A stretch of DNA of 64,000 nucleotides from a phage (GCA_032691205.1 GCA_032691205.1_4541.1); one strand, 5' to 3'; counted from the stretch's first letter, positions 3,670-11,700 are shown. A program made the numbers and translations. The notes: generated by a model from the letters alone, not told the origin.

Positions 3670-4023
3670 TTATAAATCTTTTTTACGTTTTACATCGCTT
3701 GCATGACTGTATACAGCGATCCCATTATCACGACAAAAACGGGTAAGGTATGATCCGCGTGAAAACTCTTTCCCTTCCAGGTCAACAACCTTGCTAAATT
3801 CTTCCAGGGCAACGGTATCAAAATGATCACCATAACCATATTGAAACGGCACGTTAACAACTTCAATCAATTTACCGCCGATCTCAACGTCCACGCTTAA
3901 AGAAAAATATGTGTTACCGTAGGACTGTTGAAACCAGCGACGGGCGCTAATGTGAACGGCTTCAATCTCACCAATTTTAAATTGAGTGTTACCCAGGATC
4001 GCAACGTTGATATTTTTAGCCAT
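3670..4023 (-). CDS. hypothetical protein
   Basis: ORF 117 aa downstream of unit 11. Confidence 0.65.
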   Translation of the reverse strand: MAKNINVAILGNTQFKIGEIEAVHISARRWFQQSYGNTYFSLSVDVEIGGKLIEVVNVPFQYGYGDHFDTVALEEFSKVVDLEGKEFSRGSYLTRFCRDNGIAVYSHASDVKRKKDL

Positions 4024-7114: not shown

Positions 7115-7116
7115 TC

Positions 7117-7145
7117 TTGACAAGCCCAGGGATAGGGCTTATACT
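7117..7145 (+). promoter_or_regulatory. sigma70-like promoter firing into the ORF-free region
   Basis: TTGACA (7117-7122), 17 nt, TATACT (7140-7145). Confidence 0.5.
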
Positions 7146-7376
7146 GTTTTACATACAGAAGAGGAAGCGCCACCCCACGGCGTAAAGGCGGGGCTAACAT
7201 ACCAGGGGCACTGGTTGGAAGGTTGATCGCCGGTAGGCTGGGCGCTATATATTTGTAAAGAAATGTAAAGATAAAATAATCGCTTGCTTTCCTGGCTGGA
7301 TCTGTTATTCTTATTACATGGCGAGGGGACACGGGAGCGCGAGACAAACACCGCCCCTGCGCGTCATTCTCTAAAT

Positions 7377-7395
7377 GAGAATGATTATCATTTAC
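7377..7395. promoter_or_regulatory. Fur-box-like palindrome
   Basis: GAGAATGATTATCATTTAC matches 15 of 19 positions of the Fur consensus GATAATGATAATCATTATC; related palindromes at 7365-7383, 7435-7453, 7463-7483. Confidence 0.3.
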
Positions 7396-7502
7396 CTTAT
7401 CAAATAAGAATAAATCTCATTTATAAACTTAAATGCGAATCATTATCATTTGCATTTCCATATGAGAACTCTTCTCATTCTCACCTGCATAAAAATTTTT
7501 GT

Positions 7503-7560
7503 AAACTTTAAATTTTGCTTTTGTACTTTCATTTTTGTAAAAGCAAAAAAACTTTAAATA
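7503..7560. repeat. direct repeat copy A (~58 bp)
   Basis: AAACTTTAAATTTTGCTTTTGTACTTTCATTTTTGTAAA...AAACTTTAAATA; second copy at 7640-7697. Confidence 0.6.
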
Positions 7561-7639
7561 CTGTGGGCGCGCAAAATTTTTAAAATTTTCCTTGACTTTT
7601 GAGTTTTGTTTTGTATCTAACATTTTAAGATAATTTTCC

Positions 7640-7697
7640 TAAACTTTAAATTTTGGTTTTCAACTTTCACTTTTGTAAATTCTTAAAAAGTTTAAAT
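7640..7697. repeat. direct repeat copy B (~58 bp)
   Basis: AAACTTTAAATTTTGGTTTTCAACTTTCACTTTTGTAAA...AAAGTTTAAATA; imperfect copy of 7503-7560. Confidence 0.6.
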
Positions 7698-7840
7698 AAT
7701 TTGAGGGATTTTTGAGATAATGGATAGTGGGAATTTGATATAACCTTTAATCTTATTAGTAGACCTTCAGGAACCCACCTAGATCGAATCCTAGTGATGC
7801 AAACTGAAAAAGATAAGTGTTTGTATAGGACAAAATAACA

Positions 7841-7874
7841 GGCTCTCTACGGTGCTGTAGGAGCCTTATTTCTG
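7841..7874. terminator. bidirectional rho-independent terminator
   Basis: Hairpin GGCTC(T)CTAC-GGTGCT-GTAGGAGCC flanked by T-runs on both strands; just downstream of the NADAR gene stop. Confidence 0.5.
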
Positions 7875-7921
7875 TGCTACAAAGTGACACCTTTGTTCTA
7901 AAAATGAAAAAAGTTAAAATA

Positions 7922-8464
7922 TCACAAATATCGTCTTTGCGGTATTTTGTCTGGGAAAAGTATTTCGATCAGTTTATTATGATATTTGCCTAAAAGATTC
8001 TGCCCTTTCCAGGTGGCAGGGTTTAGCACCCCTGGTTCATACATCCCCATTCCAATTCCGTAAACCTTATCGTAGGGGCTTGCTTCAACAAACGTTTTGT
8101 ATTGGTAAAGGTGTAAGTCTGCATACAAATCTGGATTCTGTACATATTTCAAGCATAAACCTCGCATAACAATACGCTCACGGTTCTCTTCCCATACATT
8201 GTTATCAAAATCCGACACTGCCCTACCCATACGTTTGTAATAAGCTTGGATCTTCTCATCTTTCCGTATCAAACTATGAGTCAGAATAGCCTGTGCAGTG
8301 TTGTGGTCATTAAAAAGCAAAGCTTTACGCCACATCATATATTGTTCGACACAATTAAATGTCTGATTGTAACCTGGTTCGGTTTCTGTAAAGGGTGCAA
8401 TATACCAATTACTAAAAACATCTTTATGTGAAAAGAAGAATACATAATCATCAGTTATTCGCAT
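7922..8464 (-). CDS. NADAR-domain protein (YbiA/DUF1768-like)
   Basis: 180 aa; motifs FFFSHKDVFSNWY, EQYMMWRKALLF, FDNNVWEENRERIVMRGLCLKYVQNPDL, GIGMGMYEPG read as NADAR family. Confidence 0.65.
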   Translation of the reverse strand: MRITDDYVFFFSHKDVFSNWYIAPFTETEPGYNQTFNCVEQYMMWRKALLFNDHNTAQAILTHSLIRKDEKIQAYYKRMGRAVSDFDNNVWEENRERIVMRGLCLKYVQNPDLYADLHLYQYKTFVEASPYDKVYGIGMGMYEPGVLNPATWKGQNLLGKYHNKLIEILFPDKIPQRRYL

Positions 8465-8675
8465 TTTTCATGCCTTCTAAAACTTTAGCTTGCCCGTCTT
8501 GAAAAGCTTTCATCAGAACTATCTTAAGATTGATTTCCAAACGTTCTTCATCCTCTCTATAACAATCCAACACTGCTTTAAGTTCATCATAGTGGTTCAG
8601 AATAGGTTTAAAGATTTCATGGTCTGCTAAACGTGCCATAGTTTCTCCTTTGTTAATCCATCCACCAGTAGCCAT
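8451..8675 (-). CDS. hypothetical protein
   Basis: ORF 74 aa, overlaps neighbours in operon fashion. Confidence 0.5.
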   Translation of the reverse strand: MATGGWINKGETMARLADHEIFKPILNHYDELKAVLDCYREDEERLEINLKIVLMKAFQDGQAKVLEGMKNANN

Positions 8676-9018
8676 AAACTGCGTCTGCGTCGATGAGTTT
8701 GTGTTTGTTGTTCCGCATGTAGTCTAAGATAAGTAGACGTTTATTGTATCTGGAGAGATTATGACCCTCTTTTCCGCCATAGTCAAAATATTTTGCAAGA
8801 TCTTTACACTCAAACAAAATCAGTTCGGGAGTTTCTTCACACTGGTCTGTCTGGTACACTTGACGAATGATCATGTATACATCGTCGTCTTCCGCTAAAT
8901 GCTCTACTGGTCCACATCCAGCAGGAACAAATTCATAGTCCCATCTGATCAGATGTTTCTCTACTGCTTCAAAGAAGTCCATTCTTTCGTTGCGCATAAT
9001 TTGAACGTCAACTAACAT
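8653..9018 (-). CDS. hypothetical protein
   Basis: ORF 121 aa. Confidence 0.55.
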   Translation of the reverse strand: MLVDVQIMRNERMDFFEAVEKHLIRWDYEFVPAGCGPVEHLAEDDDVYMIIRQVYQTDQCEETPELILFECKDLAKYFDYGGKEGHNLSRYNKRLLILDYMRNNKHKLIDADAVYGYWWMD

Positions 9019-10472
9019 GTTTCCTCCTCTCTCATTATTCCACCTGCTTGGTTGATAGCACTTAAGACGATAGCCAAATCCTCGCGCAGGAAGGTTTCAC
9101 TATGACCATCTTTCATGTGCAAGCGTTCTACACAGCCAATAGACGGTAGAATCTGATCAGTCTTAGACTTTAGCTTACTCTCTAACGCCCTGCAAGCTTG
9201 GTAGGACGGCAGATCGAACAATGCTATACGGCGCATAGAGTAATTGTTGTTTGCATTCTGCCCTTTGATCCTGATATCACTGTCCTTTGCAATCCCCAAC
9301 TTGTAAGCTCCCGTGTCTTCTCCGTACTCATCAAGAATAATATTGATGTAAAATTCTTGCATATTTCTGTTCTTACAGCCTGGACAACCTTTCCCATTGA
9401 GATAATCGGTAGGTGTGATCGTTTGCTCTCCATGCTCCCTACATAGATATTTAAACTTGCTGTTATTGCTTACCTTATCAATGAATCCTATAAATTGATC
9501 CCCTCGTTCCTGGCAAGCTTTGGTCATACGGTAGGCCCATTGTTCAGGAGTGTAATGATAATATTTAGAACAACGGCAAGGAAGGCCACCCCTTTTCAAA
9601 TGACTCATCTTCATCTCAAATTTATTATCGCATAAGCCTTCTTTACAATAATCATCCTCTGCACATATAGGACATTCTACAGTCCAGTAAACCTGACGAC
9701 CTAATCTATCTACTCTATCGCTACGATAATATTTACGCTCTACATTATCAGGACAAGCTTTTATAAAATCTTCAACATGTTGTTTATCCTCCATTGTATT
9801 CCTTTGTTTCGTCATTTCTCTTTGACAACTGTAGCATCCAGTCCCTTGTTTAGCACTGTTTACAGTGGTAGTGCACCATTGACCATGAACCTTACACTCA
9901 CAAATCAACTTAGTGCGGGAACCGTTCCACGGTTCCACATAGCCTCTAACAATCCAGGGTTTTTCTTTATAAGCTTCTTCTACTTCTTCTTTATGTTTCT
10001 CCCATGCAATCGATGTTCTTTCTCTGTTTGCTTCTCCCATACACTTCCTGCATCCACTCCCGTTTTTCGCAGAAGATATAGAAGTAGACCTCCACTCCCC
10101 ATGTAAAGCACAACAACAAACCAGTTTAGTATTCCATCCTTTCCATTCTCCGTGCCATCCTGTAACAGTCCAAAACTTACCTGCCTGATTGTAAGTGGTT
10201 TGCACTTCTTCTTTATATTGCTCCCAGGTTTTTGATTTGTTTATAGATACTGCTTTACTTATAATCTCCCTACCGCATTCTGGACAACCCCTCCCTAGTT
10301 TAGCGGTATTTATGCTTGTTGTTTTCCATTCTCCATGCAGAGCACAGATGCATCTAAGTTTAGTTTTATTGCCGTTCCACGGCTCAATATAATCTACAAC
10401 AGTCCAAGACTTACCTTGATAAGCTTGTTTTATATCTGTTTTATATTGTTCCCAAGTGACTATTTTTGGCAC
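9012..10472 (-). CDS. Cys-rich tandem-repeat protein with T5orf172-like (GIY-YIG-related) C-terminal domain
   Basis: 486 aa; four or five ~45-aa modules each with W..GxxTKL.C.C..HGEW...S/T..AK.G.GC..C; C-terminus EFYINIILDEYGE...YKLGIAKDSDIRIKGQ...MRRIALFDLP...HSETF. Confidence 0.6.
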   Translation of the reverse strand: MPKIVTWEQYKTDIKQAYQGKSWTVVDYIEPWNGNKTKLRCICALHGEWKTTSINTAKLGRGCPECGREIISKAVSINKSKTWEQYKEEVQTTYNQAGKFWTVTGWHGEWKGWNTKLVCCCALHGEWRSTSISSAKNGSGCRKCMGEANRERTSIAWEKHKEEVEEAYKEKPWIVRGYVEPWNGSRTKLICECKVHGQWCTTTVNSAKQGTGCYSCQREMTKQRNTMEDKQHVEDFIKACPDNVERKYYRSDRVDRLGRQVYWTVECPICAEDDYCKEGLCDNKFEMKMSHLKRGGLPCRCSKYYHYTPEQWAYRMTKACQERGDQFIGFIDKVSNNSKFKYLCREHGEQTITPTDYLNGKGCPGCKNRNMQEFYINIILDEYGEDTGAYKLGIAKDSDIRIKGQNANNNYSMRRIALFDLPSYQACRALESKLKSKTDQILPSIGCVERLHMKDGHSETFLREDLAIVLSAINQAGGIMREEETC

Positions 10473-10529
10473 ACCTCCCCCTTTAGCTATTAGTGCGAGC
10501 CTACAACAAAAGAATAACTAAAATCCCTC

Positions 10530-10560
10530 CATAACAAATGCCCCTTGCGGGGCATCTTTA
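10530..10560 (-). terminator. rho-independent terminator after the ATPase gene
   Basis: Hairpin ATGCCCC-TTGC-GGGGCAT with flanking T-rich runs. Confidence 0.45.
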
Positions 10561-11700
10561 TTAGAACACGCTACCAAGTGTAGTGGAACGTTGTGTTACA
10601 GGCTCCAGCACCACTCGCAGAGTGTTTCCTGGTGTAGTGCTCATCACCAGAATCTTACCACCTTCAATCAGATCACAAGTTAGACCATCAGCAGTTGCAC
10701 ATAGATCAATATGTGGATCGCCATCTTCGTCTAGGATAACATAACTGTTGGTTTCCATTGCTTCCACTTCATCATCTTTCAAGCTTTGCAGATAGATGTT
10801 CAGGGAACAAGCACCCGACAAAAACTTAGTAGGGGTGAAGTCGTGCCAGTTATTGATCCAATTCACCTTCAAGGTTTTGCCATTAGCTACGATAGAAGCC
10901 ACATTCCATTTAGCATCGTTGCCTAAAGAAATACCCATCATTTCAAGACATTCTTTAAAAGTCATTTTTGGATAGAAATTCAATTCTTCTACAATGCCTT
11001 GAATAACATCGAAAGACAACTCTGTGCTAACATCCCATAAACGTTGGAAGTTATCTACGTGCTTTTTATTTACCAAGTTCTTATCCAAGTAATCTAACAT
11101 GGTTTCACTAGACAGTTTATCGTAATTGAAACTGTAATAGATACGACTAGGACGGTTTACAAAATATTCCGAGATATAGCCACTATTTTTAGTGAGGATG
11201 TAAAGTTTATTCCCACTTCCTGTTCCATCCAACAAGGTCAACAGTGCTTCCTGATCTTCTTTTTTAGCGTACACTTTATCAAATTCGTCAAATAAAACAA
11301 CAGCACGATCTGTAATTTTACTCATAAATTCTAAGAATCCAGCATCTGTGTAAGGTTGTGTAACCAAAATGGTTGGAATACCTAAACCTTCTGTGGACAT
11401 TAAAGACATGCTAATCAGTTTAGCTAACATCGTCTTACCACTGCCCTTTGTCCCTGTCAGTAACACCCCAGTATTTTTACCTTCTTTACTACGACGAGCA
11501 AATGTTTTAATAACATGTGCGGCGCGGTCTTTAGTTTCCCCATAAAGAGTGTTCGGAAGAGAGAAACTTTCGCCACGCACTAAAGAGTAGTTACCGTGCG
11601 GATCGCAGTTGACAACCCAAACTCCAGCAGGAAGTTTATTAGCTTCAACGCCATATTCCTTATTTACAACAGCCACATCTCCAAAAATAGTGTATTTCAT
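10561..11700 (-). CDS. P-loop NTPase (AAA-type ATPase)
   Basis: 379 aa; Walker A GTKGSGKT, Walker B VVLFDEFDKV. Confidence 0.75.
   Translation of the reverse strand: MKYTIFGDVAVVNKEYGVEANKLPAGVWVVNCDPHGNYSLVRGESFSLPNTLYGETKDRAAHVIKTFARRSKEGKNTGVLLTGTKGSGKTMLAKLISMSLMSTEGLGIPTILVTQPYTDAGFLEFMSKITDRAVVLFDEFDKVYAKKEDQEALLTLLDGTGSGNKLYILTKNSGYISEYFVNRPSRIYYSFNYDKLSSETMLDYLDKNLVNKKHVDNFQRLWDVSTELSFDVIQGIVEELNFYPKMTFKECLEMMGISLGNDAKWNVASIVANGKTLKVNWINNWHDFTPTKFLSGACSLNIYLQSLKDDEVEAMETNSYVILDEDGDPHIDLCATADGLTCDLIEGGKILVMSTTPGNTLRVVLEPVTQRSTTLGSVF

Follow-up and report, generated by a model that had tools for sequence, protein, structure and literature searches.

What is the gene at positions 9012-10472, minus strand, of a 64,000-nucleotide (nt) stretch of phage DNA (GCA_032691205.1), and does it serve its own spread or the phage that carries it? 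The whole stretch, called the window below, belongs to a phAPEC8-like myovirus of the genus Phapecoctavirus, subfamily Stephanstirmvirinae. The open reading frame (ORF) is intact, with 486 codons, a GTG start, and a TAG stop, and the limits given in an earlier note made from the sequence are exact. According to the evidence below, it is probably a free-standing homing endonuclease gene (HEG) of the CapR-array/T5orf172 class, located between the genes for an AAA-ATPase and a protein of 121 amino acids (aa). The nuclease-type protein with modular nucleic-acid recognition that the note suspected is supported, and members of the C-terminal domain family reach T5orf172 and MUG113. The gene product is divided as follows, with model confidence given as predicted local distance difference test (pLDDT) values.

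9012..10472, minus strand: complete ORF of a CapR-array plus GIY-YIG/T5orf172-like endonuclease, 486 aa, matching PHROG 681 'endonuclease' over its full length (E=9e-84)
10248..10460, minus strand: N-module 1 (aa 5-75), putative Zn ligands C41/C43/H46 and C63/C66; pLDDT 56-73, lower model confidence
10014..10232, minus strand: N-module 2 (aa 81-153), putative ligands C119-121/H124 and C141/C144; pLDDT ~90, 89.4 when modelled as a single module
9798..10010, minus strand: N-module 3 (aa 155-225), putative ligands C191/C193/H196 and C213/C216
9555..9788, minus strand: module 4 (aa 229-306), CapR-type C267-x2-C270 ... C299-x-C301 with invariant Cys, constant in all family members (E=4.4e-10)
9369..9554, minus strand: module 5 (aa 307-368), putative ligands C344/H347 and C363/C366, constant in the family (E=3.5e-9)
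9015..9368, minus strand: predicted GIY-YIG-fold, T5orf172/MUG113-like nuclease domain (aa 369-486), with invariant Y375-I-N, K391-x-G393-I, R401, Q405-N406, E431, and D455-G-x2-E459-T

According to Pfam, five stretches of the protein match PF21817, the CapR homology domain (E=3.3e-28, 98.1 bits vs a cutoff of 24.2). Every module still matches this family when excised (E=1e-4 to 4e-10), with modules 1, 4, and 5 above the cutoff (26.4, 40.0, and 37.2 bits, respectively) and modules 2 and 3 slightly under it (22.2 and 22.8 bits). The tandem Cys-rich repeats seen by the earlier note are thus far beyond chance. Their unit, however, is not the ~45 aa stated there: the module boundaries, which were set with purpose-built hidden Markov models, and the periods of the degenerate DNA repeats (222, 228, and 450 nt) both give about 75 aa (~74-78), while the Cys-rich core alone spans ~36-45 aa. 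Modules 1-3 represent one type, referred to as N, having a mutual identity of 46-49% and the spacing HGEW-x7-AK-x-G-x-GC-x2-C. Module 4 shows the permuted CapR pattern C-x2-C...C-x-C and module 5 the reduced motif C-x2-HGE...G-x-GC-x2-C, so the motif previously quoted for four to five repeats (W..GxxTKL.C.C..HGEW...AK.G.GC..C) describes the first three modules but not the last two.

All five modules contain 3-4 Cys/His ligand candidates in CapR-like spacing, i.e., two Cys pairs ~20-30 residues apart or permuted. Invariant among these candidates are C193, C213, C216, C267, C270, C299, C301, C344, H347, C363, and C366. Across the family, one Cys of the first pair and the C-x2-C pair never change, whereas the first Cys of the 'C.C' that had been taken for conserved varies; the fourth ligand, as far as the alignment indicates, is likely a His or a neighbouring Cys.

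For structural analysis an AlphaFold2 model was built with a 25-sequence alignment, reaching a mean pLDDT of 84.8 for the whole protein and ~90 for modules 2-5 and the C-terminal domain. In this model a module starts with a helix, continues with a three-stranded sheet and a short helix, and ends in another helix that bears the C-x2-C at its N-terminus; the separate model of module 2 has the same arrangement. Of the putative ligands, the first group occupies the end of strand 2 and the turn between strands 2 and 3, while the C-x2-C pair begins the last helix (C63/C66 with helix 64-77, C141/C144 with helix 142-152). As modelled, this combination of hairpin and helix N-terminus is treble-clef-like, in agreement with the Pfam description of the related DUF4379, which also matches family members. 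The modules do not appear to be the zinc ribbons proposed earlier, since the two ligand pairs are not both on beta-hairpin knuckles; structure prediction favours the GIY-YIG-like fold that the note expected at the C-terminus, but not its view of the modules.

Regarding other databases, the match to PHROG 559 ('HNH endonuclease') is confined to the module region, and therefore the same modules are also joined to other nuclease heads. One relative from the sample of C-domain matches described below combines the family with HNH_3 and NUMOD4. An NCBIfam search yielded nothing but a sub-threshold match to the YnfU Zn-protein, and we know of no solved structure of CapR/DUF723-type arrays. Zn-dependent sequence-specific binding of double-stranded DNA is demonstrated for CapR of the satellite PLE only, whose Cys4 motif is needed for DNA binding (PMC8096241). 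By homology to this protein, the modules of the window gene would bind both zinc and double-stranded DNA.

The T5orf172-like C-terminus also claimed in the note proves to be real, though weak by sequence. At E<=1 the full-length protein has no match to Pfam T5orf172 or MUG113; at the same threshold, 12/25 of the closest homologues match T5orf172 and 6/25 match MUG113 (PF13455). A search of 1.84 billion proteins with a profile of the C-terminal domain returned 783 cluster representatives, in which the domain is always C-terminal. A sample of 77/783 includes 73 proteins with CapR, 8 that reach T5orf172, and 8 that reach MUG113 (E<=0.01). One relative (P0029) exceeds the curated T5orf172 cutoff (22.6 bits) on exactly the matched region. 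The modelled topology is beta-beta-alpha-beta-alpha, with DSSP strands at 373-380, 386-395, and 412-420 and helices at 398-408 and 424-435, and corresponds to a GIY-YIG fold. Here Y375 falls in strand 1, K391 and G393 in strand 2, R401 at the start of helix 1, and E431 in helix 2. Y375, R401, and E431 are invariant in the 25 homologues and the 77 wider relatives, and the domain has 21 invariant positions in total, this triad included. Judged by secondary-structure position in the model, the three residues are probably equivalent to Y6, R27, and E75 of I-TevI, and the invariant residues as a whole fall at the expected sites of the GIY Tyr, the T5orf172 'KIG' motif, the catalytic Arg, and the catalytic Glu. 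Because of the family matches and these residues, the domain is placed in the GIY-YIG/T5orf172 group.

As for function, the T5orf172 domain of Odn, the origin-directed nuclease of Vibrio phage ICP1 (gp88), cleaves DNA and is dead in an E180A mutant, and Odn is an active sequence-directed DNA endonuclease by experiment (PMC8263062); the C-terminal domain of the window protein may be expected to cleave DNA by homology to it. PDB-chain searches with the full protein and with the C-domain profile gave nothing meaningful (FtsY with E=0.49, anillin with E=1.5), and Foldseek found no match to the six-domain model in the PDB at E<=1e-3.

The genomic setting of the gene is described by the following features.

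9029..10555, unstranded: exchangeable cassette, comprising the ORF without its last 5 codons and stop, together with the 5' spacer; sole stretch without bases common to carriers and non-carriers
10561..11700, minus strand: upstream flanking gene, AAA-type ATPase, conserved flank
8653..9018, minus strand: downstream flanking gene, 121 aa, without a family match; its start overlaps the end of the endonuclease ORF by 7 nt (9012-9018)
9012..9030, minus strand: last codons of the endonuclease ORF (..EEETC*), containing the Shine-Dalgarno sequence (GAGGAGGA) and ATG (9018-9016) of the downstream 121-aa gene
10470..10482, minus strand: AAGGGGGAGG (Shine-Dalgarno-like) and GTG start codon of the endonuclease ORF
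10530..10555, minus strand: terminator-like hairpin (ATGCCCC-GCAA-GGGGCAT followed by TTTGTTAT), directly 3' of the ATPase stop codon, at the right cassette edge

Over the 4 kb surrounding the gene, the window shares 98.9% identity with Klebsiella phage ZCKP1, and with many Escherichia phages the value is about 97.7%. The endonuclease cassette itself occurs in 23 phage records with at least 98% identity (99.9% in 19 of them). In ~45 collinear Phapecoctavirus genomes the flanks are 97-98% identical while the DNA of the slot is unalignable and encodes other family members, such as those of 326 aa (SKA64, annotated 'putative homing endonuclease'), 332 aa (tuntematon), and 394 aa (phAPEC8_00253). 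These diverged alleles have one or two N-modules where the window protein has three. Comparison of 4 carriers with 3 non-carriers gives exact cassette borders, 9029 and 10555. Both the left border and the conserved C-terminal tail are explained by the Shine-Dalgarno sequence and ATG of the downstream gene, which are embedded in the last codons of the ORF.

Three carriers were compared in detail for divergence of cassette and flanks. ESCO37 and nieznany show 1-2 differences from the window over 8657-10619, with flanks 2-5% divergent; for ESCO37 the single difference in this interval compares with 75/1512 to the left of it and 28/1528 to the right. Thus, the cassette is closer between carriers than the flanks are, as homing or co-conversion predicts. 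None of the carriers examined has a disrupted ORF, and comparison with the ASO2A allele shows 13 synonymous differences at ~285 sites and 12 non-synonymous ones at ~1173 sites (dN/dS ~0.22), i.e., the gene is under purifying selection. The start position is common to homologues, which begin MPKIVTWE. On a wider scale, tblastn with the nuclease domain detects 136 phage records, mostly Stephanstirmvirinae and with about one copy per genome, whose identities are bimodal (at least 99% in 24 records, <60% in 109). A search for paralogues within the window found none. RefSeq copies of the gene in related genomes are annotated 'endonuclease' and GenBank copies 'hypothetical protein'.

Two smaller observations concern the cassette. 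At position 9682 (codon 264) the window allele has a private Thr264 (YWTVECP), with Ile264 in the three other examined carriers and in the cluster representative P0001; the residue is three positions ahead of the C267-x2-C270 pair of module 4. The hairpin at 10530-10555, labelled a rho-independent terminator in the record of phage ASO2A, lies inside the exchangeable cassette, and every endonuclease allele is accompanied by a spacer version of its own. The cassette may in this way bring along its own control of expression, as is the case for the seg and mob genes of T4. When the endonuclease 5' spacer was scanned for sigma-70 promoters, no site emerged, leaving the hairpin as the sole element found.

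The number of modules varies considerably. In a sample of 176 relatives it ranges from 0 to 6 with a mode of 3, which makes five modules the upper tail. Arrays are, moreover, the rule for this class of HEGs, in which repeated CapR/DUF723 Zn-finger modules stand ahead of T5orf172 (PMC10448857), so the unusual length and regularity that the note saw in the arrangement are not supported. A constant core of module 4, module 5, and nuclease is preceded by one N-module in 29 proteins, by two in 9, by three only in the window protein, and by four in a 527-aa relative (P0101). Other module orders and up to 6-7 modules are also seen among relatives. For each N-module of the window protein, the nearest matches (up to 67%) are modules of other alleles and not the adjacent ones in the same array (46-49%). 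Recent duplication within the gene as the origin of the N-modules is ruled out by these closer matches and by the DNA repeats, which are 72-81% identical over short tracts. Identity per domain forms a mosaic: P0013 shares 80% in the nuclease domain and 23-45% in the modules, and P0010 shares 76% in module 5 and 50% in the nuclease domain. These patterns correspond to the repeat-mediated recombination, including copy-number change, and the domain shuffling described for T5orf172 HEGs of ICP1-like phages, where gp174 underwent an in-frame 228-bp repeat deletion (PMC10448857).

Three relatives depart from this scheme. P0002 (669 aa) resembles two full family members head to tail in one ORF (an N-module, modules 4 and 5, and nuclease, then modules 4 and 5 and nuclease), which suggests either two HEGs in tandem at a single locus or a fusion caused by read-through or gene calling. 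In P0027 and P0028 (665 aa), seven Cys modules of the DUF723/DUF4379 type precede a C-terminal domain of another kind (..ADFFLP..YIEYDGEQHF..), which we take to resemble Vsr/DUF559-type PD-(D/E)xK nucleases; if the resemblance holds, these proteins would carry the same array ahead of a different nuclease head.

If the gene is a HEG, the five N-terminal modules, Zn-stabilised and arranged as beads on a string, would jointly recognise a long stretch of DNA in a related phage that co-infects the cell and does not have the window allele. The C-terminal GIY-YIG-type domain (Tyr375, Arg401, Glu431) would cut near this target, and recombinational repair from the HEG-bearing genome would copy the cassette together with some flanking DNA into the recipient. 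Gain, loss, and shuffling of N-modules, via recombination between the degenerate 222-228-nt repeats, would retarget the enzyme. We infer homing and its target site, as well as the binding of zinc and DNA and the cleavage; the domain composition, the modelled GIY-YIG fold, the conserved catalytic-type residues, the exact-border cassette polymorphism, the near-identical cassette in diverged backgrounds, and the purifying selection are observed.

Several results weigh against homing. Every collinear relative examined holds some allele, and no natural empty site was found among them. EP57, the single genome without the gene, carries an imprecise deletion (9031-10570) fusing the neighbouring genes, with the ATPase ORF joined in frame to the 121-aa ORF (OR544956.1, 1780-3285, 502 codons). 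This genome is 130.7 kb long vs ~150 kb in relatives and also misses window positions 8157-8527, so its gaps could be real deletions or assembly problems; if the assembly is correct, the endonuclease gene is dispensable. No carrier-specific protective flank polymorphisms were detected outside 9029-10555 in the small sample of 4 carriers and 3 non-carriers, which leaves no basis for proposing a target site. The ORF could also be maintained for non-selfish reasons, through its translational coupling to the downstream gene. As for the nuclease domain, in isolation it scores 13.6 bits against PF10544 (T5orf172), below the cutoff of 20 (E=0.099). Among family members aa 390, where the second GIY-YIG Tyr would be, varies (Y/F/M/A/L/C), and helix 1 has the invariant Q405-N406 in place of His/Tyr; the active nuclease Odn likewise has no helix-1 His/Tyr (PMC8263062).

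The strongest competitor, possible but on the whole unlikely, is a domesticated HEG-derived nuclease that benefits the phage by cutting the DNA of a competitor (co-infecting relatives, as in marker exclusion, a satellite, or a plasmid) or of the host, with allelic diversity reflecting an arms race over specificity. Such a role would fit the presence of some allele in the slot of every Phapecoctavirus examined, with no clean empty site, the single copy or so per genome across the whole subfamily, the purifying selection, and the N-terminal recognition modules, which diverge and shuffle faster than the nuclease domain; Odn provides a precedent (PMC8263062). However, homing or co-conversion predicts both that the cassettes of carriers are more alike than their flanks and that the borders are exact, whereas domestication needs neither. 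In addition, the protein has no satellite-derived or foreign DNA-binding domain, all five modules being of the usual CapR type of HEGs. The two explanations are also not mutually exclusive. Seg-type HEGs, for instance, spread by marker exclusion.

It seems improbable that the protein is instead a catalytically inactive DNA-binding regulator, whose array binds phage or host promoters and whose GIY-YIG-like domain is a degenerate remnant. CapR is indeed a repressor built of the same module (PMC8096241), and the unconserved second Tyr and the sub-threshold Pfam scores of the C-terminal domain are in line with degeneration. This domain, however, is the best-conserved part among the closest alleles (80-92%), and neither its 21 invariant positions with the Tyr/Arg/Glu triad nor its retention at the C-terminus of 783 cluster representatives would be expected for a degenerating remnant. 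An RNA-binding or other non-DNA role of the modules, suggested by their alpha-beta-beta-beta-alpha topology and a weak likeness to tandem double-stranded RNA-binding domains (dsRBDs; top Foldseek matches with best E=4.5e-3, probability 0.38, and TM<0.2, and a Pfam DSRM_2 match with E=0.068), is very improbable, as the dsRBD matches are not significant and the homologous CapR module binds double-stranded DNA in experiment (PMC8096241).

Returning to the HEG, the closest described systems are those of ICP1, for which the CapR-array/T5orf172 class has already been reported (Netter 2021; Barth 2023; PMC8096241, PMC10448857). The ICP1 HEGs (gp174, gp165, gp121, gp53, and gp130; for a wider set see Barth, Dunham & Seed 2023, PMC10448857) have the same domain order as the window protein: one to several N-terminal CapR/DUF723/DUF4379 modules and a C-terminal T5orf172-type GIY-YIG domain. 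Like the window gene, they possess DNA-degenerate repeats that change in number by recombination, the gp174 deletion of 228 bp being comparable with the period of 222-228 nt found here, and they are located at boundaries of genetic exchange between related phages. In contrast to them, the window protein belongs to the E. coli/Klebsiella Stephanstirmvirinae, its nuclease domain is too divergent for the Pfam T5orf172 cutoff, its family has a fixed core of modules 4 and 5 preceded by 1-4 copies of a third module type, and all alleles of this family occupy one and the same slot. The main text of PMC10448857 makes no mention of phAPEC8-like phages. The window protein is thus a divergent coliphage member of a published architecture and not a new kind of system.

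Other known proteins share only parts of this design. CapR itself, the capsid repressor of the V. cholerae satellite PLE (PMC8096241; PF21817), has the same Cys-rich module, and the C-x2-C...C-x-C of module 4 is its pattern; it is, however, a transcriptional repressor without a nuclease domain, whereas the window protein joins five modules to a conserved one. Odn resembles the window protein in its C-terminal domain, which is of the T5orf172 type and has the catalytic Arg and Glu, but the DNA-binding part of Odn is a satellite-captured RepA_N domain with no Zn-finger array, and Odn is domesticated for anti-satellite defence (PMC8263062). The T4 enzymes I-TevI and SegA-G also rely on GIY-YIG catalysis and bind DNA through modules arranged as 'beads on a string', among them a small Zn finger, and the Seg genes are free-standing genes in intergenic positions that spread through flank co-conversion, all as proposed here. 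Their nuclease, however, is N-terminal, so the order is reversed, and their DNA-binding modules are of NUMOD/HTH (helix-turn-helix) types and not CapR arrays. SLX1/HIGLE GIY-YIG (URI) structure-specific nucleases act in eukaryotic repair, have different partner domains and 12-13% identity, and are related at the level of the fold only.

The most useful aspect of the locus is its natural allelic series with 1-4 N-modules. If the gene is a HEG, this would be a clean natural experiment, in which the alleles of one slot share the same nuclease head and differ chiefly in how many Zn-finger modules they carry and which ones. With E. coli hosts and many isolates, it would be a convenient system for studying how CapR-type arrays read DNA, how module gain and loss retarget a homing endonuclease, and how such genes shape recombination boundaries in therapeutic-candidate phages. 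A bolder version, which we regard as rather doubtful, is that across the series from one to four N-modules before modules 4 and 5 every CapR-type module of ~75 aa recognises a block of base pairs of constant length, so that extra modules lengthen or shift the target predictably. Such an array would amount to a compact Zn-stabilised modular code with zinc-finger/TALE-like logic and a monomeric GIY-YIG head, and the slot would be a battleground where alleles cut each other's junctions.

A few further observations concern the window beyond the endonuclease gene. Scans of the whole window for tRNAs and Rfam families returned nothing. The ~800 bp at 7115-7920 contain no convincing ORF, no tRNA, and no Rfam family; a terminator placed by the annotators of ASO2A (3818-3854 of that locus) corresponds to approximately 7829-7865 within this region. 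The sign of the GC skew changes at ~14 kb and ~54 kb, the endonuclease cluster (~8-14 kb) being on the minus strand, and these changes may be switches of transcription direction between gene modules. Finally, two genes downstream of the endonuclease, positions 7922-8464 of the minus strand encode a 180-aa NADAR-domain protein (PF08719, E=7.8e-36), annotated 'GTP cyclohydrolase II/COG3236' in related records. NADAR enzymes can reverse DarT-type DNA ADP-ribosylation, and this gene may be a counter-defence gene.

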